Below, in pieces: positions 1 through 60,088 of a DNA stretch of 64,000 nucleotides; the stretch's first letter is position 1; each line of letters starts with the position of its first letter. Both the position numbers and the translations under genes were made by a program. The DNA lies in assembly GCA_027923505.1 (NCBI GenBank), contig BROI01000029.1:186001-250000 (forward strand), given 5' to 3'. This DNA is from Mayamaea pseudoterrestris. Its lineage: Eukaryota. The notes below the pieces were generated by a model that was not told the DNA's origin, made no database searches, and saw only the letters and a list, made by a program, of their open reading frames with translations.

Positions 1-1
1 T

Positions 2-925
2 GGCCTGGCACCCGTCTTGAATGCCCTGCAGGCTAATAAACGAGACTTTACACGACCAGAAGATTTGATTGATTTGGGGGAACTCAGCGGAGAAGCTTTG
101 GAACATGAATTGGCACAGCGAGCCCGAAAACCGGAGGCTCAGTATAGTCCTTGGTTGTTTGTGCAGGACAATAGTAGGAGCATTAGTTCATCCACATCGA
201 GTCGTTCCGGTGTTAAGAGTTTACAAGCCGATCGAATCTTGGCTTTGGCAGCAGAGCGAAACATACCAGTGGCGACGGTCGACAAGGGCGTGCTGAACAC
301 GCTGTCGGGTGAGCGACCACATCAAGGTTACGTTTTACGATGTGGTCCGCTGGAGTTTGAAACTCTGAATCGCATTCCCTTGTCTTCTGACGATCACGAG
401 TCGCAGACACAGCAACAACCACTATGGCTGGTTCTGGACGAAGTGGTGGACCCCCAGAACCTTGGTGCGTTGCTGCGATCGGTCCAATTCCTGGGACAGC
501 GCCATCTCAACGTGTTGGTCTGCGCCAAGAACTCGGCGCCTCCGTCACCAACGGTTAGCGCGGCGTCGGCTGGAGCGCTCGAAGTCTTGAACGTGTACGC
601 CACGAACAGTCTTCCAAAGACATTGTCGCAGGCCGAGCAGGATGGCTTTCGCATTATTGGAGCGTCCTCGTCCGTGCCGCGCGACTCGGAAGGTATCGAG
701 CTGTATGATCTGCAAGAGCTGCCACCATTGGCAGGACCAACGTTGCTCGTGCTTGGATCCGAAGGGCATGGGCTACGCCAACTGGTGTCGAGATGTTGTA
801 CTGAGTTTGTACGCATCCCTGGAGGAATTGAGGAGGGTGGCGTTGATTCTTTGAACGTTAGTGTCACTGGCGGAATACTACTGTGGCACTTGCTGCAGCC
901 AATGTATAAAACAGCAAACGTATAA
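2..925 (+). CDS. SpoU/RlmB-family rRNA 2'-O-methyltransferase (MRM1-like), 5'-truncated by window edge
   Basis: SPOUT motifs LVLDEVVDPQNLGALLRS, LVLGSEGHGL and VDSLNVSV are present, along with an N-terminal HQGYVL. The frame is open to the window start (GLAPVLNAL). Confidence 0.88.
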   Translation, partial: GLAPVLNALQANKRDFTRPEDLIDLGELSGEALEHELAQRARKPEAQYSPWLFVQDNSRSISSSTSSRSGVKSLQADRILALAAERNIPVATVDKGVLNTLSGERPHQGYVLRCGPLEFETLNRIPLSSDDHESQTQQQPLWLVLDEVVDPQNLGALLRSVQFLGQRHLNVLVCAKNSAPPSPTVSAASAGALEVLNVYATNSLPKTLSQAEQDGFRIIGASSSVPRDSEGIELYDLQELPPLAGPTLLVLGSEGHGLRQLVSRCCTEFVRIPGGIEEGGVDSLNVSVTGGILLWHLLQPMYKTANV

Positions 926-959
926 TGTGTTATTACGGGTTGGTATTGCACATCTATTT

Positions 960-2354
960 TTACGTTTGTTTTATCAATGGATTTGGTTGCAATCGATTTC
1001 CTACTGTAGCAAAGGTGAGAAAAGCAGTGTGCCCTTTCATCATATTGAAAGGTCGAGCAACCAATCGTTGTCTCTTTGATGATGGCGCTGCTGCGACTGC
1101 TGTTGCTGTTGCATCATCATCAGTCACACTCAATGTCGTCTTGGCGGTTCTCGTCTCATCGTCTGTATCAATCCTTTTATTTGTTCCATCATTAGAATCA
1201 ACGACAGGCTTGTGAATAGGCCGTGACTCCGTCGGTAATAGCTCAAACTCCAAATCATCCACGTAATGTTCCATCAATCGATACTCCATAGTCTGTAGTG
1301 AATGACAACCACTTTGCTTTAGCGCTGCACAAGCTTTTTGCGTTTGCTCTACGCAGGGACTGTAGGAGGCAATGTGGGCACCTGGCTTGAGGCAGTACAC
1401 CGCATGCGGCACGGCAAGCCATGGCTCTGGAAGATCCAGAAAACAGGCATCCACAGACTGCGCCGGCAGACAAAATCCATCCGTGCAAACGTCTTGATGC
1501 GTCACTGTTACCAAGTGCTCTACACCATGCTGTTTAAACTCTTGTCGCGCCGTTTCGGCTCGGTGCTGATTGAACTCAAACGTATACAAATGTCCCTTGG
1601 GTGCAATGGTTCTTAGTATAGCGTGACTCATGGCCCCGCTTCCCGTTCCACTCTCAATGACTCGCATGTTGGGTCGCAACTGTAGCTTGTACACCACTTG
1701 GACTTGATCAAGCTCCTGCACAATCTGCGTCCGATGGTTCAAGCTCCGGGCCCATAATTCCGGCGTTGGTTTTAGCAAGTAAACAAATCCGTAGCCCTTG
1801 TTATTGGAGCTTCGAATCATGCTGCCAAATGGATACTTGTTGATAAAGTCGTCATGATGAAAGTGGCCGTTGCGATTATGAAACACGTCGCCTGGCGTTG
1901 CGTAGACAAAGTCAAGCTTGTCAAAGGCTTCCATAATGACGACCAAATCGCCAGCTTGGATTGTGGAATGAGTCGGCGGAGTACACAATTCCTTATAATG
2001 ACTGGCGTCAATGTACTGAGAAGCGACCGGAAGAGGTGAAACGTCTGTTGCAATGCGCTTCTTCCCTGTCACTGCATCATGATCTCCATCATGCACCTCG
2101 TCATTTTTGCCACTGTTTTTCGAATCGCCTGCTACCGATTCTCGTGCCTTATATGGTCCCGGTCCAAGAATAACTTCAACTGCAACTTGGTTCGCCGTCT
2201 CTAGCACCATGCGGTCCAAAATGGCGTCCTCGTCGAGAGTGGCAGCATTCGTTGTTGCTGCTGCAACACCGTCACTCGACGGCAGCGGCAAGTGCCGAAC
2301 TTTGGAGCGACTGGCGATAGACTCGCGCGCGACGAGCGTTCGACCAAAGTCCAT
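960..2354 (-). CDS. TRM61: tRNA (adenine-58-N1)-methyltransferase catalytic subunit (GCD14/TRM61)
   Basis: Motifs PTPELWARSLNHRTQI, VIESGTGSGAMSH, FEFNQHRA, FLDLPEPW, YSPCVEQ and GHTAFLTFA. Confidence 0.92.
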   Translation of the reverse strand: MDFGRTLVARESIASRSKVRHLPLPSSDGVAAATTNAATLDEDAILDRMVLETANQVAVEVILGPGPYKARESVAGDSKNSGKNDEVHDGDHDAVTGKKRIATDVSPLPVASQYIDASHYKELCTPPTHSTIQAGDLVVIMEAFDKLDFVYATPGDVFHNRNGHFHHDDFINKYPFGSMIRSSNNKGYGFVYLLKPTPELWARSLNHRTQIVQELDQVQVVYKLQLRPNMRVIESGTGSGAMSHAILRTIAPKGHLYTFEFNQHRAETARQEFKQHGVEHLVTVTHQDVCTDGFCLPAQSVDACFLDLPEPWLAVPHAVYCLKPGAHIASYSPCVEQTQKACAALKQSGCHSLQTMEYRLMEHYVDDLEFELLPTESRPIHKPVVDSNDGTNKRIDTDDETRTAKTTLSVTDDDATATAVAAAPSSKRQRLVARPFNMMKGHTAFLTFATVGNRLQPNPLIKQT

Positions 2355-41036: not shown

Positions 41037-41870
41037 ATTTGAGATGGAGCCTTGAACGTGATGGTCGAATTGCGATACAATGCGCCCAAAGAAGAAGCAA
41101 AATATGCGACCAATGTGTCAAGTGCTTATTATGTTTTGTGCTCCGTAACCTTTGCAGATGGATGATGAACTATGAACTCATGCACCATGGTCGTTCGTCA
41201 GGTCGTCGTCCCATTCGCAGGCGTGGCAACGGAAACGTAGTGTCCGATCGTTATCGGCGGAAAACCGATACGACAGGAGAATCTTCAACGTCAAACGAGG
41301 CGGTTGCCGGTACAGTATATACTGGTATGGTTCGGTACTAGCTGTTTAGTATACCGGTAACTATTAGCCAACACTGTACATACGGTACATCAGTTATATC
41401 TGCATGTCAGATGTCAATATTGATCAGTTGGTTGCTACCGGTGTGTGTACCAATCACAAATCAGAAGTTTTTTTGAGTTTATATAGCATTGAGGCGGCAT
41501 TATTGTCAGCAAGGACCATACAGCGCTGACAGCACCGCATCCCGTCTGCTCTGCGAAGTTAAGCAGCGCCTGGCCTGGTTAGTACTACGGTGGGGGACCA
41601 CGTTGGAATCCCAGGTGTTCTTGTTTTTGCATATTCGATTCGAAATCAGAATCATCATCCACCCTACTCCTATTCGATAACGCTACAGTAAGTCACTTGA
41701 TGCTCCTTCTTTTGTACGTAATTAGGTCTACTGGTGCAAACAACTGTATGAGTTAGCTAAATAAACTATTCTTCACTCGCATCCTTATTTACGACTACTG
41801 GCAGCACTTTGCCATGGCGTGACGATAGTATAGACCGCAAAAGCAGCGTTCCGGTAGCTCCACCTGTTAT

Positions 41871-46782: not shown

Positions 46783-49700
46783 TTAATCCAAATATTCGTG
46801 ATACATATCGTCCTTTGCGGACTGTCGACCAAAAGTTGGCCTTCCCGAGCGCTGCGCTCCTGGCAGTATCTGTCGGGAGCAAATAGGGTTCAGAGCGTGA
46901 ATAAAATCCGAAAAACTAATCATAGTTTCTTCAGGTTCACTCGAATATGTCGTGAGCATCTGCCGCATGTTTTCCTTCAAAGTTTGCAAGCGATGGAGAA
47001 TGCCGTGATCACCTGACGATGCTGAATCGTCCGACGCGCTCATAGAGTCGCCATAACGCTTAGATTCTTCTCGAAGCGATTGTATCATTTCTTCCCGCTT
47101 TGTGCGCTTATACGACTCGGGAGCAAATTTTGCTCGCAAGGTAAGGTTTCTGCGAACTTCATCCAGCTGCCGACGATTCAAACCGAGCTTCGATTTGTTC
47201 TCAGTCGCATCCAACTCAGCCAAAAGCGAGGACAGCCTGACTACAAGGAAATGCACATGCTCTTTTGGAAAACAAGGTTTCGCCTTTTCAAAAACGATTC
47301 TTGCCTCCTTAACAATATGCGACGCTCTCAATAGCTCCAGGCGACGAGCTCGAGGAATTCCTTGCATGATATAATTTTCCATCTCCAACTCAATTGATGG
47401 CGTCTGATGTACTTCCGTCTTCCACGACATGTCAATAATGAAGTCGTAATCCTTGTTGAAACATCCGTTGGCAATCCCGACAAAAAGGCGGTCAAAAAAT
47501 ACGAGGATAGCGAGGAATAAATCCATTATAAGATAAAACCCAGACAAAATCAGGCCCAAGATGCAACCAAAAGCACCCGCGCGCCGGGCCCAATAATCTG
47601 GAACTGAGTGAACTCGCCACAGACTGGATAACAAGCCATAGAGGAAGCCGAAAATTGCGGAAAACACACCATGATGGAATGACTTAATGTGACCGGTCAG
47701 ATTGTGGCTGACGCTCTTATGGCGTCGCATTCCGGCAGTGAACCAATAACGATCGTTCAATTTATTCCACGTCGGAATCCATTCCCAAAAGTGGAGCCAA
47801 TCAATCCACTTAATAATCTTCTCCGATTCCAGCAACGCAGCCATCTCCGAACAAACTTTGATGCCATGCTTTCTCAAGCCGGTACCAATAAGTTCATATC
47901 TGGCAATCTTGTGCTCACCCAAAAGGAGGGAGACGTCGCAAAGCATGTTTTCTCTCGGCAAATTGGATATGAAATGTTCTCGACCGTTTTCTATTCCGTT
48001 CTCGATTTTCATTTGGACCGAGAGCAGTTGTGCTGCTCGTTGCATGTCTTCACTCGAAAGGTCCAAAAATTTTTCGGCCAAGATTTCGGTCGTGAGTTTG
48101 TTGATAGGACATGCTTTTGGTCCGACGCCAGCCAGTTCAACGAAAAAGCCCCACATGAACTGGTCGGCAAAGAATGGACAAATAAATGTCGGCAGTCCAG
48201 AACGTAGACCTGCGGCGGTTGTTCCAGCGCCACCTGCGAGACGAGTGAAATACAACTACTGAGCACGAAAGATCCAACAGCTCTTGGGTTATACCACATG
48301 CCGAATCGTGACGTACCATGATGAATCACCGCACAACACTGAGGCAAGAGCCAGTCGTGAGGACACGGACCGACATTGTGGCACAGACCCGTCTCGTCTT
48401 CGACATCGAGCTTGGTCCATCCGCTCTGTACGAGTACTCGTCGCTGGGCCTGCTTGGCCGCTTCCTTTATAATCGTTTCAAGCTTCTCAGGGTCTTTTAT
48501 GACCATGGATCCAAAACCTATAAATACTGGCTTAGGGCCGTTGGCCAGCCATATACTCAAGTCCTCAAACGGCGTAGTGTCAAAACTCTTGGCGTGAGTT
48601 TCTACAACAAAGGTTCCGACGACTTCACACTGCTCAGGCCAATCATCGGGTTTCGCCACAAAAGAGGGAGACCACATGGCGCTAAACGGAAGCTTAGCCA
48701 TTGCAACCAAATTCGTTGAACTACTAAACGAGTAAATGTGCGGTAATCGAAGGGTTCGAAATCGCCACTTGTTAACTTCTCGAGAAAAGCTCGTCCAAAT
48801 GAGACTTTCAAACACATTGTAGGATTGTGAATTTGCAGCGCGACCTTGTACATACGGCAGACCTGACATGGGATGCGGAAAACTCTTGGTGCCATAATAC
48901 CTGGCGTTAGTGACGAAAAAGGATGACGGTGAGCCAAGAGCTAAGCGCGATGTAATGCGCAGCTTGCAAAAAGTGACACTATACTCTTACCATGGCTGTG
49001 GAAACATGATATGACAAGGAATACCGAGCGCCTCAGCAACATGCACATGTCCCATGACGGGCGGATTGGCAATAATCGCATCGGCGACAAAGGATCGAGC
49101 TCCTGGGTCATCCGGATCAGCCTGCGTCGCGGCAGGCCAGGACGAACGCATAATCTTACCGACCATCTTTGTCTTTTCTGGAATAAGGCTCGGATGCATA
49201 GCTTCGCCCCATACAGAGCCTCCGGTTTGAACCATCCAACTCGACAGTAATTTGGGATCTCCAGCCATTGGATAGAACTCAATGTCCTGCGACACGACAG
49301 TCTGCCGGTGAACCTGGTGCGTCGCAATTCGAACACGGTGTCCATCGCGTTGCAGCGCCTTGGCCAAGCCAGTAAAGGGCAAGACATCTCCATGCGTACC
49401 AACCACCATGATGCAAATGTTGAGCTTGACGAGAGGAAGTTCGGGATTAAATGGAGATTCAACTTCATCATATCCGTCATGTCCATCCGAAGCGCTCCAC
49501 GGAATGTCAATCACTTCAGCATCGCCATCGCGAAATGAAACAGCTCCACGAGGAGTGTTTAATAGTTTGTCTACCTGCAAGTTTGACTCTGATTTGGCCT
49601 TGGCAAGTCCATTGACCAATGGTGGCGGCTCCTTAGCTTCTTCTTCGTTGAGGGACGACAGCGTGTGGCTAAAGTCCGGAAGAACGGTCACATCTCCGCC

Positions 49701-49805
49701 GTTTCTCAGGATCGCAATTTCAAGTGGAGAGGGCTCTGTCCCATCAGCGTCCACAGACGATTCAGACTCTGCTGCTTTTAGCATATTAGGTGTGGATTCT
49801 GACAT
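46783..49805 (-). CDS. Sterol 3-beta-glucosyltransferase (UGT80/GT28-like), 3 exons (introns about 48990-48901 and 48315-48236)
   Basis: Motifs [60 protein letters not shown] and [10 protein letters not shown]. Confidence 0.92.
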
Positions 49806-50052
49806 TTTATGAAGCTTAATGGCCGATCGAAGACGGCGATTCCTGGCTTGACATGGTGGCAAAGGAAGCTTGGTGTTCGCGTGACGTGCGACCTCGAATC
49901 GAATAAGTCGTAGCGGTTCTAAAAGTCGGACTGGCACTCGCAAAGGAACCATGAACAGCTGCCGCGGTTTTCTTTGAACCATGGCAGATCGGATTGGAGC
50001 ACCGCTGCTGCAGCTCCATAACAATCCTTTCTTCCGCTCCTTGTTATATATC

Positions 50053-50975
50053 ATGCTCTCCTGTCGGTTTATCTTAGTGCTATTGCTGCTGTCAGGAAAG
50101 ACTCAATCGGTTATAGCGTACAATTCTGTTTTATCGACACCGAGATCCTTTCGACGGCCAAGATCCTCTGTCAACATTGGCATCAGGCTGACGAGAGTTA
50201 ACGATTTTGCGCTAAAAGCAGCTAGAGACGAAGAATCTCTAGATGCAGTGGAAGGGCCATCGAGCTCGCCTTTCATTCCCTCTGACCTTTGCCAAGCAAC
50301 ACCAGCAACCATGATGATCAAGGGCTATGACCCCTCCGAAGGTTTGCCGGAATCCGTAAACGTTGGTGACCCACAACAACGAGTCGCTGAAAAGGAAAGG
50401 AGCGTTACTTCTATTTTGAGGGAACTGGTAGCCATCCAGCAAAAGGGACCACAAAAGTACTGCATTCTAGGAACGCGTCACTGCAGCTACATGCATCAGC
50501 AAATTATTGAACTACTGTGAGTGCAGAGGAGGAGGAGGAGGAGGATAGTCTGTAAATATTTAGTGACGTGTCCCACTCACAAAATGATGTGTTTCCTCAT
50601 CTTGACAGAGCATATGCCTTGGTCTTGAGTGGTAATCATGTTTACACATCGGGGGCTGGTGGCACACACGCGGCCACAATTCGCGGAGCCCTTCGAGCCG
50701 AACGACCCGATTTACTCACCGTTGTACTGCCGCAATCTATGGATCGACAAACAAAGGAGTCGCAGTCTTTGCTGAAAAAGGTGACGGACTTGATTACCAT
50801 GCCACAAAACGATGACATGCCACTGGATGTCGCCAGTCGAATTTGCAACTCCTATTTATTGCAGCAGACGGACCAGCTAATTAGTTTTGCGTTCCATGAG
50901 TCTTCCACCGTCATCGAAGCGACCAAGGAAGCAAAGAAACTGGACATGCTGGTGACTACCCTGTACCTCGATTAA
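50053..50975 (+). CDS. Cyanobacterial-type DprA/Smf-like (SLOG/Rossmann fold, 'DNA recombination-mediator protein A') protein with a presequence (intron 50517-50608)
   Basis: Motifs [52 protein letters not shown] and terminal TLYLD; N-terminal signal peptide. Confidence 0.78.
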
Positions 50976-51692: not shown

Positions 51693-51838
51693 GAGAACAA
51701 TTGACACGTCAAAGGCTTTTCAATGACGCTCAAAGGAGTCTCAAGGGAGTCCCAGCGAAATTCATTGAGCCTGCGCGCGGCGACGCGATGCCGCACATTT
51801 CCTCGCCATCACGTCACCATGGCTGCACTGTCGTAACC

Positions 51839-53657
51839 ATGAATAGCTCACCTATAAACATCGATAGCCCTGTTGCGTCACTACTAATCTCTTCTGACAT
51901 GGAAGTAATGGATGTAGATGATGAAGGAAGTCTCGCGGCAGATGAAATTGAGCTGGTAGCCGACACCAATGCTGTCAACGTCACGTCCTGGAACGAGTCG
52001 CCGCTCTTGCCCATCGCCACCGCTCGCAAGCCTCTGAGCCGGACTGACAAGCTTCAGATCATCAAACTCTTCAAGAAGCGCCAAATTGAGAAGAAGGCAG
52101 ACTTCCATGCTTCATTACTTGGTCCAGATCAGCCTCTCACAAAACTTTTGCATGGCATCCTTGTCGAACCAGAATCGCGCTTGAAGCAATGGAAGGCTGA
52201 CGAATGCGCCAGCACCATCATTCAGCTCCACCTCTTTGATGAACAGAGCAAGGAATGCTTTAAAATGGAGGACTCTGTGGCTACTCGTCGCAGCAGCAAG
52301 CCATCAAGTGCCATTGCTTCCCTTCGCAGCGCCATCATCAAACTGGAATCACATCGCAACCATTTGTCAACTGCGCAACCCAAATCCCTTGCATCCTACA
52401 AAATCCTCGACAAGAATGGAAAGCGCGTCCAAGACTCCATGGTCTTTGATTCTTTGGAAGCAGTGACACGAGAGGCGTGCGCTGTTTGTGGACAGAAGAC
52501 GATCAACGCATTTGACACGCCAAGCCAAGTCCAGGAACGGAACGAGCGCACTCTCGCAACGCACAAGCAAGCTTTGGCTGACTGGCAAGGAACTGGCGCA
52601 AACCCAAACAAGAAGCCAAGATGCGGAAAGACTTACTCGCAGCGACTAGTTTGCTTTTCATACTCGCTCCATTGCGGATCAAGCGAATGCAGCTGCTACG
52701 CGTGCAAGGCTTTGATGGATGCAGGTATGCAGCGGCCACTGGTCCAAGGTCCCCTTGGCATGGATTGTAGCTGCGGTATTTGCAAGTCAACTTGTTGTGC
52801 TGGATACTATTCAGCTGATCATCGTAAGATTGCGGAAATGGCACTGTCAGCGCGTGAAGGTGATTCGTTCCAACGTACATTCATGGATTCTTGTCATGCT
52901 TGCCATCCATACACGCAACTCACAGTCTCACATGATCTACTTGTTAACTACAGGCCCAACCGTTGATTTTTGCTCTACTGTACGAGATGTGTTTGCATGC
53001 TCTGCGCGAGAGGTTGTGGATGGAAATCTATGCGCAGATTCGCAAGCGTTGTTTCCAGACATTTGCAGCATGACAGCCGTCAACCTTCTCCATGATCCTC
53101 TTCTCCAAGGAAATATGCAGCTACGCTTAACTGCACAAGAAGCAACTGGTGCTCTTACTACTTATCATGGAGGGTTCTCAATTGATCAGATCCGCAAGAA
53201 CAAGCGACTTGCAGCAACAAATGCTAGTGAAAATGACATTGCCACAAAGCGCAACATGTCATTTGCCACCAGCTCATCCAACAAGCGAGCAGGCATTACA
53301 GTCCCTCCCAATGCAGCAACCGGAAACCGAGTTTCACGCAATAACTTGCTTCGAGTGTCTCCACTTGAGAACAGCCCAGCGCATTTGCGCGAGAGTACAC
53401 CTTTGAAGCAAGCCTCCGACCCAGAGCTTGAGCAGAAGAAGGAACTCATCCTTGGCTTGCTGCTTGACATCATGTCAGCGGACGGTTTTGAAGACAAAGG
53501 TCATGGTGTTTTCTGTGACAGTCTCTTTTCGCAAGATCATCCTCGCTTCCGCGATACGAATTCCATTTGTTCCAAGCTGGGAAGCCTAGCAATGATGCAA
53601 GCAGACGAAGAGAAGCTGAAGAAGCGCATCCACGTCCTTGCCACTCGATTCAGCTAG
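51839..53657 (+). CDS. Transposon-encoded Cys-rich protein of unknown function (intron from 52860 or 52875 to 52953; start may be 51788)
   Basis: Two long ORFs are joined in frame by a phase-1 GT-AG intron with a TTAAC branch-like site. Cys cluster CAVC...C...HC....CSCYAC...CSCGICKSTCC. Confidence 0.68.
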
Positions 53658-53853
53658 AAAAAAGAGATTTATCTACAGTAGACCACGTTCACAAGCCGCT
53701 GGAGGCGCTTGAATCGTCTTGAAGATTTGCAGAACGTGGAGCTGAGGTGCGTGCTACACCCGAGTCGTGCATGCCAGCATTGGTCATTAAGATAGACGCA
53801 CCAGCTCCTACTTTATATAATATAGTATCTATCTACAAATCAAAATAGTTCTG

Positions 53854-54984
53854 TTAGTTTAAAACTTGGTATCCGCAATGCGCAAACGTTCGATCAAAGC
53901 CGCCACCGCGACCAATGGCAGCGCATACTTGGTGGATTGCTTGCTCAAGATGCTGCACTGTCCAATGCTGGCGAGACATTTCTCGAAGCTGAACACCAAT
54001 CATACAAAAGGCATACTCAATTGGACCATATTTGGGCTGATAGGGTGGTCTAGGTATGATTCGAAAGCGTTGAGGAAGCGCGCGACCCACTACTGTTTGG
54101 TAAACAATGCCAGCACCATGAGAAGCCAGATTATCCCACAATAAAACCCGATCTCCATCCACAGGCAGGCCGCTATTCTCACAAGTAGTACAGACAATGT
54201 TGCAAAAGTCTGCAAATCGTTCCGCTGTTGTCCCTGGGTCCATGTACGTCCGAAACCAACGGCGAGGATTGTCGACGCTTCCAGCCACATTGGGAGGCAA
54301 CGCTGGGTCACCAGGCTCAATTGCCATGAGCAAAGTAATCTTCTGGTCCCTGCTGTAGTGTCCTGGCTTGCGGATGCGAACACCAACGGCTGAATGCCCT
54401 GTGGAACGGTTCGTTTTCTCAAGGTTGAATGCGCACTCGTCAAAATCAATGAATTGATTGCGCCGCACCGTCACTACACCAAGTGGTGGTGGCTGACTCC
54501 AAAACCACGTCGCCCGAAGCATATTGACTGGGGTAAATGCTTGGTATGCTTCTGTAGATGCTTTCTTTTTTGAAATCTGGAGCTCTGCCATGCGTTCTGA
54601 CACTTGAGAGCGGGAGACAACTTCACCAGTGTTGGCGTAAATGAACGTTGCAATTTGATCAACACTGGCTTCTGGATGTGCAAACAAAATGATGGCCAAT
54701 GCAATTTGCGAAAGTCCAACCAAAACTTCTCTCTGCCTATTTCCGGTTGCTCTCTTTGGATTGACTCCATTGACTCGGTATCGATACATTGTGCTGCGCG
54801 ACATGGCAACTGGAAGTCCTTGCTGCTCGCGAGCCAGCTCTTGCTCCCGCTGTGAAACTGGATAGCCAGTGGAACCACCACGTGAAGGATGAGGAGGCGC
54901 TTGGCGGAGAGCTCCAAGTTGCCGCGCTAAGCCAGCAGCTGAGCGCTCGCGTGCTGCAATGTCGGCAGGATCAGCACGGGGCAT
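53854..54984 (-). CDS. IS630/Tc1-like DDE transposase (DD38E), apparently intact, 376 aa
   Basis: HTH-like N-terminus (SRSTMYRY, VSRSQVSE) and catalytic FIDFDE, LLWDNLASH and PPYQPKYGPIE. 38 residues separate the second D from the E. Confidence 0.92.
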   Translation of the reverse strand: MPRADPADIAARERSAAGLARQLGALRQAPPHPSRGGSTGYPVSQREQELAREQQGLPVAMSRSTMYRYRVNGVNPKRATGNRQREVLVGLSQIALAIILFAHPEASVDQIATFIYANTGEVVSRSQVSERMAELQISKKKASTEAYQAFTPVNMLRATWFWSQPPPLGVVTVRRNQFIDFDECAFNLEKTNRSTGHSAVGVRIRKPGHYSRDQKITLLMAIEPGDPALPPNVAGSVDNPRRWFRTYMDPGTTAERFADFCNIVCTTCENSGLPVDGDRVLLWDNLASHGAGIVYQTVVGRALPQRFRIIPRPPYQPKYGPIEYAFCMIGVQLREMSRQHWTVQHLEQAIHQVCAAIGRGGGFDRTFAHCGYQVLN

Positions 54985-55450
54985 GATGGTGTTGTACTTG
55001 CGGCTGCTTGGTTGCGTTCTTGATGACGCTTGTACCAAATTCAAAGCTTTCCTTTGAGCAAACCATTCCTGATCTCAAGAATGACAAGAATGACATGTGA
55101 GGCATTTGAAAGGAGATTTAAACATCAAATGTGTTGATTTCTTGCGGTTGATGGCGGAGGCGTCTAGCATCGTTCGACCGTTCGACCGTTCGACAACGAA
55201 TCAAGACGCACTGATCGGGAGCATTCCTGATGCGCCGCGTCAAAACAAATAGCACAGTTGGATTCGTCTTGCTCTAATTGCTCTACTTACGCTCTTAAAA
55301 CCGAAGTAATGGTTGTTAAATATAGTTAAAGATGATGCTCCGCCATGGTGATGGCGGCGAAACTGCGTTTTGTGACGCTCAACGAGATTGGTTGGCGAAG
55401 CCTTGAGACTCCTTTGAGCGTCATTGAAAAGCCGTTGACGTGTCAATTGT

Positions 55451-55657
55451 TTGCTGAAGAAGGTGACGGACTTGATTACCATGCCACAAAACGATGACAT
55501 GCCGCTGGATGTCGCCAGTCGAATTTGCAACTCCTATTTATTGCAGCAGACGGACCAGCTAATTAGTTTTGCGTTCCATGAGTCTTCCACCGTCATCGAA
55601 GCGACCAAGGAAGCAAAGAAACTGGACATGCTGGTGACTACCCTGTACCTCGATTAA
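55451..55657 (+). pseudogene. 5'-truncated duplicate of the last 68 codons of the DprA-like gene
   Basis: Peptide identical to 50769-50975 with only two synonymous differences. It has no 5' exon or promoter of its own. Confidence 0.9.
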
Positions 55658-56188
55658 CTGTAAACCATTTAACGATGCATGTGTTATTGTCGCGAGCGAC
55701 CAGTTCAATAGAGATTTGTTACTCAACGAAATGATTCGGCTTTAGTTACGAAACATCGCACTGCCTGATAGCAAGGTAAAATTCATAAGCCGCACTGCTA
55801 GCAGGTATGGCGCCAATCCTTACGGCCAGATTGCTCATCGACCAGGCTGCCCATTACCCTTGCTACTGATTGCATCGTATACATATACCTCATTTAGCGA
55901 CGTAGCGAAGTTTCACTTGTTAAGGGTTGATTATGACTACCAATAGAGGCTAAGGTTAACTGTCCATAACACATCAGAGACCAAGCTTAAAAGTAAGGCT
56001 ACGTACGAGGCAAACCAGACGATGTTCTTGAGAGTTTGGAGTACAGATTCACAGCTTATAGGTAGTATTCCCTGTAGTCTACGTGAAAGGAGGATAATAC
56101 AAGTTGAACGACTCCTACCGGTATGTAGTACTGTAGCATGCTCTCGACACGAGCATTAACAAACAACTGTACCGGTAGGCACCCACAG

Positions 56189-57275
56189 GAGCTTCCGGTA
56201 AAATGTCTTTTTTGACGAAAAATGTCGCACCGGGTCAGCTGTTAGTCGTGGATGAGATTTGATTGGCGACAATGCGCGCGTGCATAGCCAGGCTATGCTT
56301 GCGCGCCGACGGATCGCCAATGGGCTTATCAGTAATTTACTTAGTCAGCTGTTTGCTGATAGCGATTTACTTAGTCAGCACTTTGCTGATAGCGATTTAC
56401 TTAGTCAGCAATGTGCTGATAGCACTTTGCTGATAACGGTTTTTGTCAAAGTAAAACCTTGAAAAAGAACTTTATGCACATTTGACATTTTTTGTTGAAT
56501 ATGATTCGTCGCTAGCGACAAATCAGCTGTTTCTGTACATATACCTTGACGATGATTGTACAACTGCCACCAACCGACTTTGACGACGACGACGACCATG
56601 GCACCATCGACAAGCACTGGCTAGCCATACTGATTGCTGCTAAAGATGGATGTTTGTATTTGCCATGACAAGAAGCTTGCTTGAGCTTTGTAATTGGTGT
56701 TATAATGATGATTCCCTACGAAAAGGACAACGTGTTTGCTGCGAGCAGCAGAACTGATGCTCCACACAAATCGTGCTGTCGCGGGATCTACAGTGCCCGC
56801 GCCAGCAAACCAACTGGATAGATCAAATCGTCATATATTAATTAGTCTACTTTAATTGTTAAATAAAGAGCAGCGGTCTTCTTCAGCTTCTGATTATGGT
56901 GGTCGGCAAGCGGCAAGGAGCGTCGTCGAAGGCCAACGGTTCATCTTCATGGATGGCTGTGCGTAACTATGTCTATTTGTGACTATTGATAATACCATTT
57001 CTAACGATTTGTACTTTATCCCGTACAGTCGCAGAAATTCTGTATAAGAAACGTTCTGATAGTATTCTGCTGATAAAGTAAAGTTCTGATAGCAATGTGC
57101 TGATTAAGCAAAGTTCTTATAGCGAAGTGCTGATAGAAGAATTTAGCCTTCGCAAAACAGCTAGGCGTGCCGGCGCGCCACGCCAGCCATGCCAGCAACG
57201 GCTTTTGGGTCTCGTCAACGGAATGATGAGTGCCAGTGTGACATTTTCGGCGAAAAGTCATTTTACCGGACGCTC
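56189..57275. mobile_element. Non-autonomous TIR element (MITE, 1087 bp) with 3-bp CAG TSD, PIF/Harbinger-like
   Basis: Ends GAGCTTCCGGTAAAATG and CATTTTACCGGACGCTC (16/17 match, imperfect to ~45 bp). CAG lies at 56186-56188 and 57276-57278, and the paralogous empty site (~51509) has a single CAG. No coding capacity. Confidence 0.92.
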
Positions 57276-57769
57276 CAGAGTATGTACTCCACTTGCTTCG
57301 ATCCACGAATACTTCGATCGTGTACTCCAGTATGCAGTATTGGAATCGGCTCTCGTGCCACGTGTATTCGTCTATCACACAGAATGTACATTTATTTCTT
57401 CAATGACGACAGATTACCACAAAGACAATCGCACATAGGCTCAAGAAAAGAATGCTTTATATTGCCTAATTCTTATTGATATTTTGTAACAACCAAACTC
57501 AGCGTGGAAAGATTTGCAGAACAGGTGCAGATTGTAACGACAGCAACTGTATCTTTCAGTGTATCATCAGTACACCTCCGCTTGCATCACCGGACCTTGG
57601 ATTTCTGACGGCTTCTCTGCCCGCCAATCTACTCTTATGCCCCGGCATGTGTTATTGCATGGTTATCCAAGCAGACGTGAGTAAAGGAGAGTCTGTCCGA
57701 GTCCAATCCAAAGACAGTTGCTGCTGTGTCGGCAAACAAGTGAACATATATACTTTCAAGGTGTGCACT

Positions 57770-58734: not shown

Positions 58735-60088
58735 GAACATAGCCAGAACACAATTCATGGAACAAGACTTTTGGGGGTAGTCTTTGAAGGCCACACACTG
58801 TAGCACCATGGAGCTGGTTAATGTGGGGCCCTTTGCCCTCCCAAACAACTGATGCATCACGTGAGCTGGATTTGATTGTTATGCACCAATCTTACCGCAT
58901 ATATGTCTTCAAGAATAGCCAACACAGAATTCATGGACAAGACTATTGGGGGTAGTCTTTAAAGGCCACACACTGTAGCACATGGAGCTAAATACTGTGT
59001 GCCTGTTTGCTCTCCCAAACAACTGATGCTACATGTGAGCTGGATATGATTGTTAGTCACCAATCTAACCGCATACATGTCCTCAAGCATAGCCAGAACT
59101 GAATTCACTGAACAAGACTATTGGGGTTAGTCTTCAAAGGCCACACACTGTAGCACCATGGAGCCGGTTACTGTGTGGCCCTTTGCCCTCCCAAACAACT
59201 GATGCTACATGTGAGCTGGGTATGATTGTTGGTCCCCAATCAAACCACATACATGTCCCCAAGCATAGCCAGAACAGAATTCATGGAACAAGACTATTGG
59301 GGGTAGTCTTTGAAGGCCACACACTGTAGCACCATGGAGCTGGTTACTGTGTGGACGTCTGCCCTCCCAAACAACCGATGCTACACATGAGCTGGATATG
59401 ATTTTTATGCACCAATCTCACCGCATACATGTCCCCAAGCATAGCCAGAACAGAATTCATGGAACAAGACAATTGGGGGTAATATTCGAAGGCCACACAC
59501 TGTAGCACCATAGAGCTGGTTAATGTGTGGCCGTTTGCCCTCCCAAACAACTGATGCTCAACATTAGCTGAAAATAATTGTTATGCACCAACCTCACCGC
59601 ATACATGTCCCCAAGCATAGCCAGAACATAAATCATGGAACAAGACTATCGGGGGTAGTCTTTGAAGGCCACAGATTGTAGCACCATGGAGCTGGTTACA
59701 GTGTGGATGCCTGCCCTCCCAAGCACCATGGGGTCGGTTACAGTGTGGACCTCTGCCCTCCCAAACAATTGATGCATCATGTGAGCTGGATATGATTGTT
59801 ATGCACCAATTTCATTGCATAATTGTCCCCAAGCATAGCCAGAACAGAATTCATGGAACAAGACTATCGGGGTACTCTTTGAAGGCCACATACTGTAGCA
59901 CCATGGAGCTGGTTACTGTGTGGCCATTTGCCCTCCCAAACAACTGATGCTATATGTCAGCTGGATATGATTGTTATGCACCAATTTAACTGCATACATG
60001 TCCTCGAGCATAGCCAGAACAGAATTCATGGAACAAGACTATTGGGGGTAGTCTTCCAAGGCCGCACACTGTAGCACCTTCCTGCCCT
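58735..60088. repeat. Satellite-like tandem array, 176-bp monomer, about 7.4 copies
   Basis: (C/A)ATAGCCA at 58738, 58914, 59088, 59264, 59440, 59616, 59834 and 60009. The one 218-bp interval contains an internal 42-bp duplication. Confidence 0.96.

Follow-up and report, generated by a model that had tools for sequence, protein, structure and literature searches.

Transposons of the IS630/Tc1/mariner (ITm) superfamily are textbook one-gene elements and the basis of gene-transfer tools. A second protein is known from elements whose transposases belong to different superfamilies: PIF/Harbinger encodes a Myb-like protein besides the transposase, MuDR carries the convergent genes mudrA and mudrB, and CACTA produces TnpA and TnpD. 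Here we describe a transposon of the freshwater diatom Mayamaea pseudoterrestris, located on contig BROI01000029.1 of assembly GCA_027923505.1, in the 64,000 nucleotides from position 186,001 to 250,000 of the forward strand. This whole stretch is referred to as the window, and positions are those of the window. The element spans 51696-55451 (3,756 bp) and contains, between inverted ends, two convergent genes, one for an ITm-type transposase and one for a cysteine-rich protein, hereafter called the partner. Its layout is like that of MuDR, in which the convergent genes each start near their own terminal inverted repeat (TIR), and a second, non-catalytic protein is also the logic of PIF/Harbinger and CACTA.

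As far as the accessible part of a Tc1/mariner survey goes, the ciliate TBE/Tec elements are the exception with several open reading frames (ORFs), and stramenopile members occur only in the plant-type mariner family (PMC7325037). TBE/Tec elements, as described there, likewise combine an ITm transposase with further ORFs inside the TIRs, one of them on the opposite strand. They have, however, three ORFs, TIRs of about 700 bp, a DD34E transposase and, in Tec, a site-specific recombinase, whereas the diatom element has two ORFs, TIRs of 51-75 nt and a Cys-rich protein. The animal family DD38E/Intruder, a sibling of DD34E/Tc1 according to the available text of PMC7731502, has in common with the diatom transposase the 38-residue spacing between the second Asp and the Glu of the catalytic triad. 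Intruder was compared by description only, and the common spacing is not taken as homology; some members of the diatom transposase's clade carry a 4-residue insertion within this stretch. The name Tn630 is used for composite IS630 transposons (PMC11544213).

The preliminary description of the window had proposed an undescribed two-gene lineage. No published description of the gene pair, nor any equivalent, was found in the literature searched, which left Repbase-type libraries and subscription journals outside, so that the word undescribed is provisional. In two supplementary text files of PMC9724779, neither the locus tags concerned nor the word transposase occurs; its Supplementary Table S3 (repeats) may list the class of the element.

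Structure of the element and its transposase

The TIR arms found by a repeat search are 75 nt long each and 85% complementary. Their outer 51 nt are identical at 50 of 51 positions, with a single base different, and this agrees with the near-perfect 51-bp TIRs that had been reported. Patterns of 49 and 24 nt taken from the ends match just the two TIR sites in the 64-kb window (0 expected from 100 shuffles), so that the pair is unique there. In the left TIR, a sub-repeat of 15 nt, TCAAAGG..TCAA, occurs twice in direct orientation, at 51709-51723 and at 51730-51744, 21 nt apart. The GC content of the element is no different from that of its surroundings. The two genes run towards each other and leave 196 bp between their stop codons, close to the 200 bp first estimated.

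The transposase gene on the minus strand had been described as uninterrupted, and it is indeed an intact frame of 376 residues. The protein is identical to an NCBI entry located, like four host proteins of the window, on a contig of 329,369 bp. The catalytic triad, assigned by motif, consists of D182 (DFDE), D284 (LWDN) and E323 (GPIE); 101 residues separate its first two members and 38 the last two, and the label DD38E given at first is therefore correct as a count. In an alignment of 33 relatives, D284 never varies, and both D182 and E323 are conserved to at least 90%. The protein matched Pfam DDE_3 with an expectation value (E) of 5.4e-8 (33.2 bits, above the cutoff of 28.6) and the NCBIfam IS630 equivalog model NF033545 with an E of 3.3e-16 over model positions 41-297 of 299, at a score under the equivalog cutoff (59.6 bits vs. 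100). In its N-terminal third, the helix-turn-helix (HTH) families HTH_33 (E 0.0021) and HTH_32 (E 0.024) gave weak matches, both under the Pfam cutoffs. A profile of the 33 relatives matched the catalytic cores of Mos1 and SETMAR (Hsmar1/SETMAR) at E 0.0015-0.0043; the single sequence matched no PDB chain in a PDB sequence search and no PHROG family. Membership of the transposase in the ITm superfamily is thus supported, and the earlier assignment to the IS630/Tc1 type is borne out by the DDE_3, NCBIfam IS630 and Mos1/SETMAR profile matches. In common with the superfamily, the element has a DDE_3 domain, short TIRs and a transposase of about 370 residues, which may also have N-terminal HTH-like regions. 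It differs in having two genes instead of one, introns in both transcripts, no visible TA duplication and the subthreshold IS630 score.

A word-based search, in which 8,000 candidates were scored, gave 147 relatives of the transposase at E<=1e-3. Apart from one protein of the same genome that is considered below, the relatives listed are 39-57% identical to it and come from metagenomes and public read assemblies. The clade has conserved motifs of its own, namely RGGSxGYP near the N-terminus, RPPYQPKYGPIEY, and a C-terminal HCGY. Motif scans gave 8 pattern matches in 185,579 prokaryotic genomes and 25 in the viral contigs of IMG/VR, none of which was confirmed as a relative. In its score against the equivalog model, and in having no prokaryotic relative by motif scan, the transposase differs from those of bacterial IS630.

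Recurrence of the gene pair

Metagenome contigs of the Joint Genome Institute (JGI), viral contigs and prokaryotic contigs were scanned for partner loci with a 4-sequence alignment. The sole locus from the metagenome scan, L001, is a JGI contig of 2,672 bp that carries a homologue of the partner and, convergent with it, a homologue of the transposase. The partner core is 26% identical to that in the window and the transposase 52% (E 1e-100). The intron in the partner gene of L001 follows the residues aligned with ..REGDSFQ of the window and has the same phase. Since the pair, its orientation, and the position and phase of the intron all match at deep divergence, chance adjacency cannot, judging from these sequences, explain the pair at L001.

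From equal contig sizes we infer two further partner-transposase pairs. Of 16 partner-family contigs of known size, 2 share both their exact size and their source with transposase-family contigs (3,826 bp from JGI, proteins P0170/P0018, and 3,625 bp from Logan, P0173/P0024), while 0.14 such coincidences are expected from the local density (Poisson P 0.009). The sizes of 15 of the 118 transposase contigs, 3.3-3.9 kb, are near that of the 3,756-bp element, which is only suggestive. Over the four putative pairs, the partners are 26-33% and the transposases 43-53% identical. The preliminary description had suggested looking for co-occurrence of the two proteins between similar TIRs; a divergent pair is present in L001, a contig that lacks both ends, and the equal sizes point to two more. 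L001 speaks against its worry that the Cys-rich ORF had been captured just once. The element is probably one of a clade of eukaryotic transposons, some of them at least from diatoms, that carry two convergent genes, and we are fairly confident that it represents a conserved two-gene transposon family.

The cysteine-rich partner

Proteins of the partner family are about 560-640 residues long. An acidic N-terminus is followed by a helical domain, by a domain of 155 residues that contains ten conserved Cys, and then by a second helical region and a disordered tail. The ten Cys of the partner (C214, C217, C272, C279, C286, C289, C310, C312, C315 and C319) are invariant or at least 90% conserved in a 21-member alignment. 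The motifs CxxC, HCx4CxCxxC and CxCxxCxxxCC that had been noticed at first are present in the protein. The family also conserves Q198, N235 and K259-P260. The helical N-terminal domain is common to its members, and the longer ones also have the second helical region and an SRxxRNxL-like motif.

The annotation of the assembly places a protein 99% identical to the partner (P0001, MPSEU_000368700, GKY94019.1; 7 of 579 residues different) on a different contig, 1,239,468 bp long. When 1.84 billion cluster representatives were searched in full with this protein by HMMER, 36 relatives were obtained at E<=1e-3, 9 of them at E<=1e-10, the best being 36% identical (E 7e-26). One of the ten relatives looked up has a name, and is a protein of a Bacillariaceae (diatom) metagenome-assembled genome (MAG); the others lie on environmental or read-assembly contigs of 1.1-19 kb. 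The word-based search retrieved P0001 alone, both with partner exon 1 (2,540 candidates) and with the 21-member alignment (8,000 candidates). The partner belongs to no Pfam, NCBIfam or PHROG family, and its profile matches no PDB sequence. In the ESM Atlas, the whole protein had no usable match, and the Cys domain scored 0.76-0.77, under the level where shuffled proteins also score. The scan of viral contigs gave no locus. The sole prokaryotic match (L002, 5809-6519) is a 236-residue archaeal protein of a Methanobrevibacter MAG, in which CPxCG..CxxCG zinc ribbons recur beside a membrane segment; it was rejected as a chance pattern match.

The structure of the partner was predicted, as had been suggested at the outset, by AlphaFold2 with the family alignment. 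Residues 50-340 are confident, and the predicted local distance difference test (pLDDT) score averages 73.9 over the whole model, which is mostly helical with small beta hairpins. The Cys domain modelled alone reached a pLDDT of 93.9 and a predicted template modelling (pTM) score of 0.84. Compared by VIA-align, 20 of 48,161 chains resembled this domain at Z>=2 and none at Z>=5. The best rows (Z 2.0-2.8 over 41-53 residues) are the small zinc ribbons of TFIIS, Rpb9, NrdR, Elf1 and Dof. Foldseek found nothing at E<=0.001 for the domain in PDB or BFVD, nor at the same threshold for the whole model, whose best VIA-align match (Z 5.6) consists of helical hairpins at residues 343-404. A complex prediction of the transposase with partner residues 45-450, in which the alignments were not used, gave no answer (score 0.00) and speaks neither for nor against binding.

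Fanzor/TnpB transposons are likewise eukaryotic DNA transposons with a Cys-containing second ORF. The partner has no Pfam match to RuvC, TnpB or the OrfB zinc ribbon at E<=1, its predicted model is mostly helical, and the sole Cas12-type row in the fold comparison has a Z of 2.1. A Pfam search with 37 partner-family members at E<=0.1 gave no RuvC/TnpB-type match either, in keeping with the initial impression that the element is not a Fanzor. Nor was there a Myb/SANT match in Pfam for the partner or its relatives, unlike the second protein of PIF/Harbinger. Considering the ten conserved Cys, the weak resemblance to zinc ribbons, a basic KKPR stretch and the fixed linkage to the transposase, the most economical reading is that the partner would be a metal-binding, probably zinc-binding, accessory factor associated with nucleic acid or with the transposase.

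The C-terminal module of the partner also occurs elsewhere. A distant match of the partner family, the environmental protein fragment P0155 of 389 residues, begins with the last part of a topoisomerase domain of type IA (Pfam Topoisom_bac, E 1.2e-22). Its tail aligns with the last 148 residues of the partner (53132-53654; 32% identity, pairwise E 1e-16), including the SRxxRNxL motif and the C-terminal helices. This common module may serve for docking.

Transcription and splicing

The sequencing runs that contain the element include none recorded as RNA. Run X3 was read as RNA, that is, complementary DNA, from splice-like joints alone: its contigs contain four joints whose ends are canonical (GT..AG or CT..AC), and neighbouring genes account for two of them (48231/48315 and 58060/58155). 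If X3 is read in this way, both genes are transcribed and the partner intron is spliced. One of the X3 contigs matches 52501-53420 without any mismatch while skipping the partner intron (52823 is joined to 52954), and another covers 54164-54886 of the transposase.

The preliminary description had placed the donor of this intron at 52860 and suggested a check against RNA. The intron is indeed removed in the X3 contig, but from the donor at 52824 and not from that at 52860, while the NCBI model of the near-identical P0001 implies a third one at 52875. All three donors are in phase 1 and keep the frame, and give proteins of 562 (52824), 574 (52860) and 579 (52875) residues. The length of about 575 residues first described corresponds to the second of these donors. 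We regard 52875 as canonical and 52824 as an alternative donor, because the former matches the intron position of L001 and keeps a helix conserved in the family.

Because a further X3 joint removes 55069-55290, the transposase transcript has a non-coding first exon, which starts within about 30 nt of the right TIR. Within 55291-55360, this exon contains an upstream ORF of 6 codons, ATG..TAA. Within the intron, CGTTCGAC occurs three times at 55160-55190.

Proposed mechanism and alternative explanations

In the mechanism that we propose, the transposase would cut and paste the whole unit from TIR to TIR, and the expression of each gene would be driven from the end next to it. The partner would be a zinc-binding subunit associated with nucleic acid or with the transposase, needed for transposition or regulating it, in a role analogous to that of the second proteins of PIF/Harbinger, MuDR and CACTA. 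Taken as a whole statement, a two-gene diatom branch of the ITm superfamily with an accessory protein is the best explanation, and we hold it with modest confidence. The part of it that makes the partner an accessory subunit of the transposition machinery is more tentative, and we would put it somewhat below even. It seems rather unlikely that the partner is the first of a new class of accessory factors in transposition, whose metal-binding fold would resemble no solved structure, which would be an obligate partner in a eukaryotic IS630-like transposase clade spread through diatoms and would act on DNA at the transpososome (on target choice, or on strands and topology), and that the clade may use a target other than TA. 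The hint at a role in topology comes from the C-terminal module found also on the type-IA-topoisomerase-like P0155.

Several observations weigh against a mobile two-gene family. L001 is without both ends, so that no inverted repeats were confirmed in it. The similarity of its partner exon 2 to the window, although collinear and including GALTT and SRxYRNNL, is weak (pairwise E 0.024). In its transposase, E323 is replaced by D, conserved motifs are altered and the C-terminus is read through, for which reasons this copy may be decaying. The window contains the one full element of the analysis, and no TA duplication or other clear target-site duplication is found at the ends of this single insertion: on the left, ..TTCGAG directly precedes AACAATTG.., and on the right ..CAATTGTT is directly followed by TGCTGA.. 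(GAG and TGC adjoin the element, and no TA). Formally, the palindrome CAATTG present at the two tips might represent a duplication of 6 bp, with one insertion and no empty site to compare. In three DNA runs, no contig joins the flanks across the element as an empty site would. The runs contain two sequence versions of about equal depth, as seen at two indels in the element, 51808 and 53657 (about 73 of 151 and 81 of 156), and equally at heterozygous indels in the flanks, and the versions differ by 13-17 letters in 1,770 inside the element, similar to the flanks. Depth over the element also resembles that of the flanks, such depth not being a copy number. Finally, P0001 may represent an allelic copy: the window genes that were checked for twins all lie at least 17 kb from the element.

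These findings would also be obtained if a former transposon had become fixed or domesticated as a two-gene host locus, single-copy per haploid genome and expressed for some function of the host, P0001 being its allele on a piece left unpurged from the other haplotype. The two versions at equal depth, the absence of an empty-site joint and of a visible target-site duplication fit such a locus, as does the assembly size of 30.6 Mb, which exceeds the k-mer estimate of 27.2 Mb given in the accessible part of the genome paper. On the other hand, the same part of that paper states that haplotigs were purged, and of 10 window host proteins looked up, the protein collection contains 4 (the other 6 are not in it), all without a twin of at least 90% identity elsewhere and confined to the 329,369-bp contig. 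Both points count for a second locus, which we consider fairly probable for P0001. Moreover, the ends are still identical at 50 of 51 positions, and homologues of the transposase are numerous in metagenomes (the 147 matches above). A second transposase of the clade, 69% identical to that of the window, is present on a third contig of the same genome (P0003, GKY93367.1). It has G for D182 and an 11-residue deletion, and therefore looks dead; no partner of matching divergence is found among the annotated proteins. This degenerate relative on a third contig shows past mobility of the clade in this genome. An immobile host locus is accordingly judged improbable. A different possibility is that the Cys-rich gene is a passenger, captured early and kept for an indirect benefit to element or host (as a regulator or in anti-silencing), outside the transposition machinery. 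The transposase has a putative HTH-like DNA-binding region of its own and a complete catalytic core, so that the partner is not obviously needed for recognition of the ends. The partner also evolves about twice as fast as the transposase, according to the identities of the four putative pairs, and its C-terminal module on the unrelated topoisomerase-like protein suggests modular shuffling. Conservation of the pair, orientation and intron position at deep divergence argues instead for a long obligate association over transient cargo, and no stand-alone host orthologue has turned up; we regard a passenger as unlikely, though less so than an immobile locus. That a single-gene IS630-like element landed beside an unrelated host gene, the TIRs only seeming to enclose both, is favoured only by the single-gene layout being the rule in the superfamily, as stated in the available part of PMC7325037. 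Both genes lie inside the sole TIR pair and the convergent pair recurs in L001 despite 26% and 52% identity, which makes such a chance neighbourhood extremely improbable.

If the two-gene reading with an accessory protein is true, eukaryotes would have expanded the minimal one-gene design of the ITm superfamily on at least one further occasion. A first functional context would also be provided for a protein family with 36 relatives, a confident predicted fold and no solved analogue. Moreover, diatom genomes, otherwise dominated by Copia retroelements according to the accessible part of the genome paper, would contain a low-copy, transcribed and apparently intact DNA transposon, a possible start for a native transposon tool.

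Feature coordinates and neighbourhood of the element

The coordinates of the element and of L001 are collected in Table 1.

Table 1. Features of the two-gene element (window positions) and of the metagenome locus L001 (positions of its own contig).
Feature	Position	Strand	Remarks
Left TIR	51696..51770	+	outer 51 nt, 51696-51746, near-perfect
Partner exon 1	51839..52874	+	ATG 51839; end as in the NCBI model for P0001; alternatives 52823 (spliced contig), 52859 (donor first described)
Conserved Cys-rich domain	52394..52858	+	residues 186-340 (155 residues); ten conserved Cys
Partner intron (spliced contig)	52824..52953	+	GTAAGA..AG, 130 nt, phase 1; annotated alternative 52875-52953
Partner exon 2 and stop	52954..53657	+	stop 53655-53657; helical region, disordered tail with SRxxRNxL-like motif, C-terminal module
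Spacer between convergent stop codons	53658..53853	.	196 bp
Transposase coding sequence	53854..54984	-	376 residues and stop; ATG 54984, stop 53854-53856; one uninterrupted frame
Transposase catalytic codons	D182 54439-54441; D284 54133-54135; E323 54016-54018	-	placed by motif
Transposase intron in the 5' untranslated region	55069..55290	-	GTAAGT..AG, 222 nt, X3 joint
Transposase first non-coding exon	55291..55349	-	at least 59 nt in the spliced contig; starts within about 30 nt of the right TIR
Right TIR	55377..55451	-	outer 51 nt, 55401-55451
L001 partner exon 1	1-715	+	open from base 1
L001 partner intron	98 nt	+	GTGAGT..AG, phase 1, position homologous to the window
L001 partner exon 2	814-1610	+	
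L001 transposase	2601-1684	-	73 bp from the partner stop

The left neighbour of the element is a multi-exon gene on the minus strand (46783-50102), with a Glyco_transf_28 N-terminal domain (E 6.8e-17) as in sterol glucosyltransferases; its 83-nt intron at 48232-48314 was confirmed by X3. Further to the left, a full-length 5S ribosomal RNA gene (101 bits) lies at 41508-41626.

On the right side, the depth of the DNA runs rises 2-4 fold over 55807-57674, with many loose ends, and this region may be another repeat or element that adjoins the transposon. Tandem repeats of 30 bp with TGCTGATAGC are found at 56335-56435 and 57046-57141. At 58738-60078 lies a tandem array, the unit of which measures about 176 bp (5.6 + 2 copies, 86% match). 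Its summed depth in the DNA runs reaches about 43,000, as compared to about 100 nearby, and it is therefore read as a very high-copy satellite.

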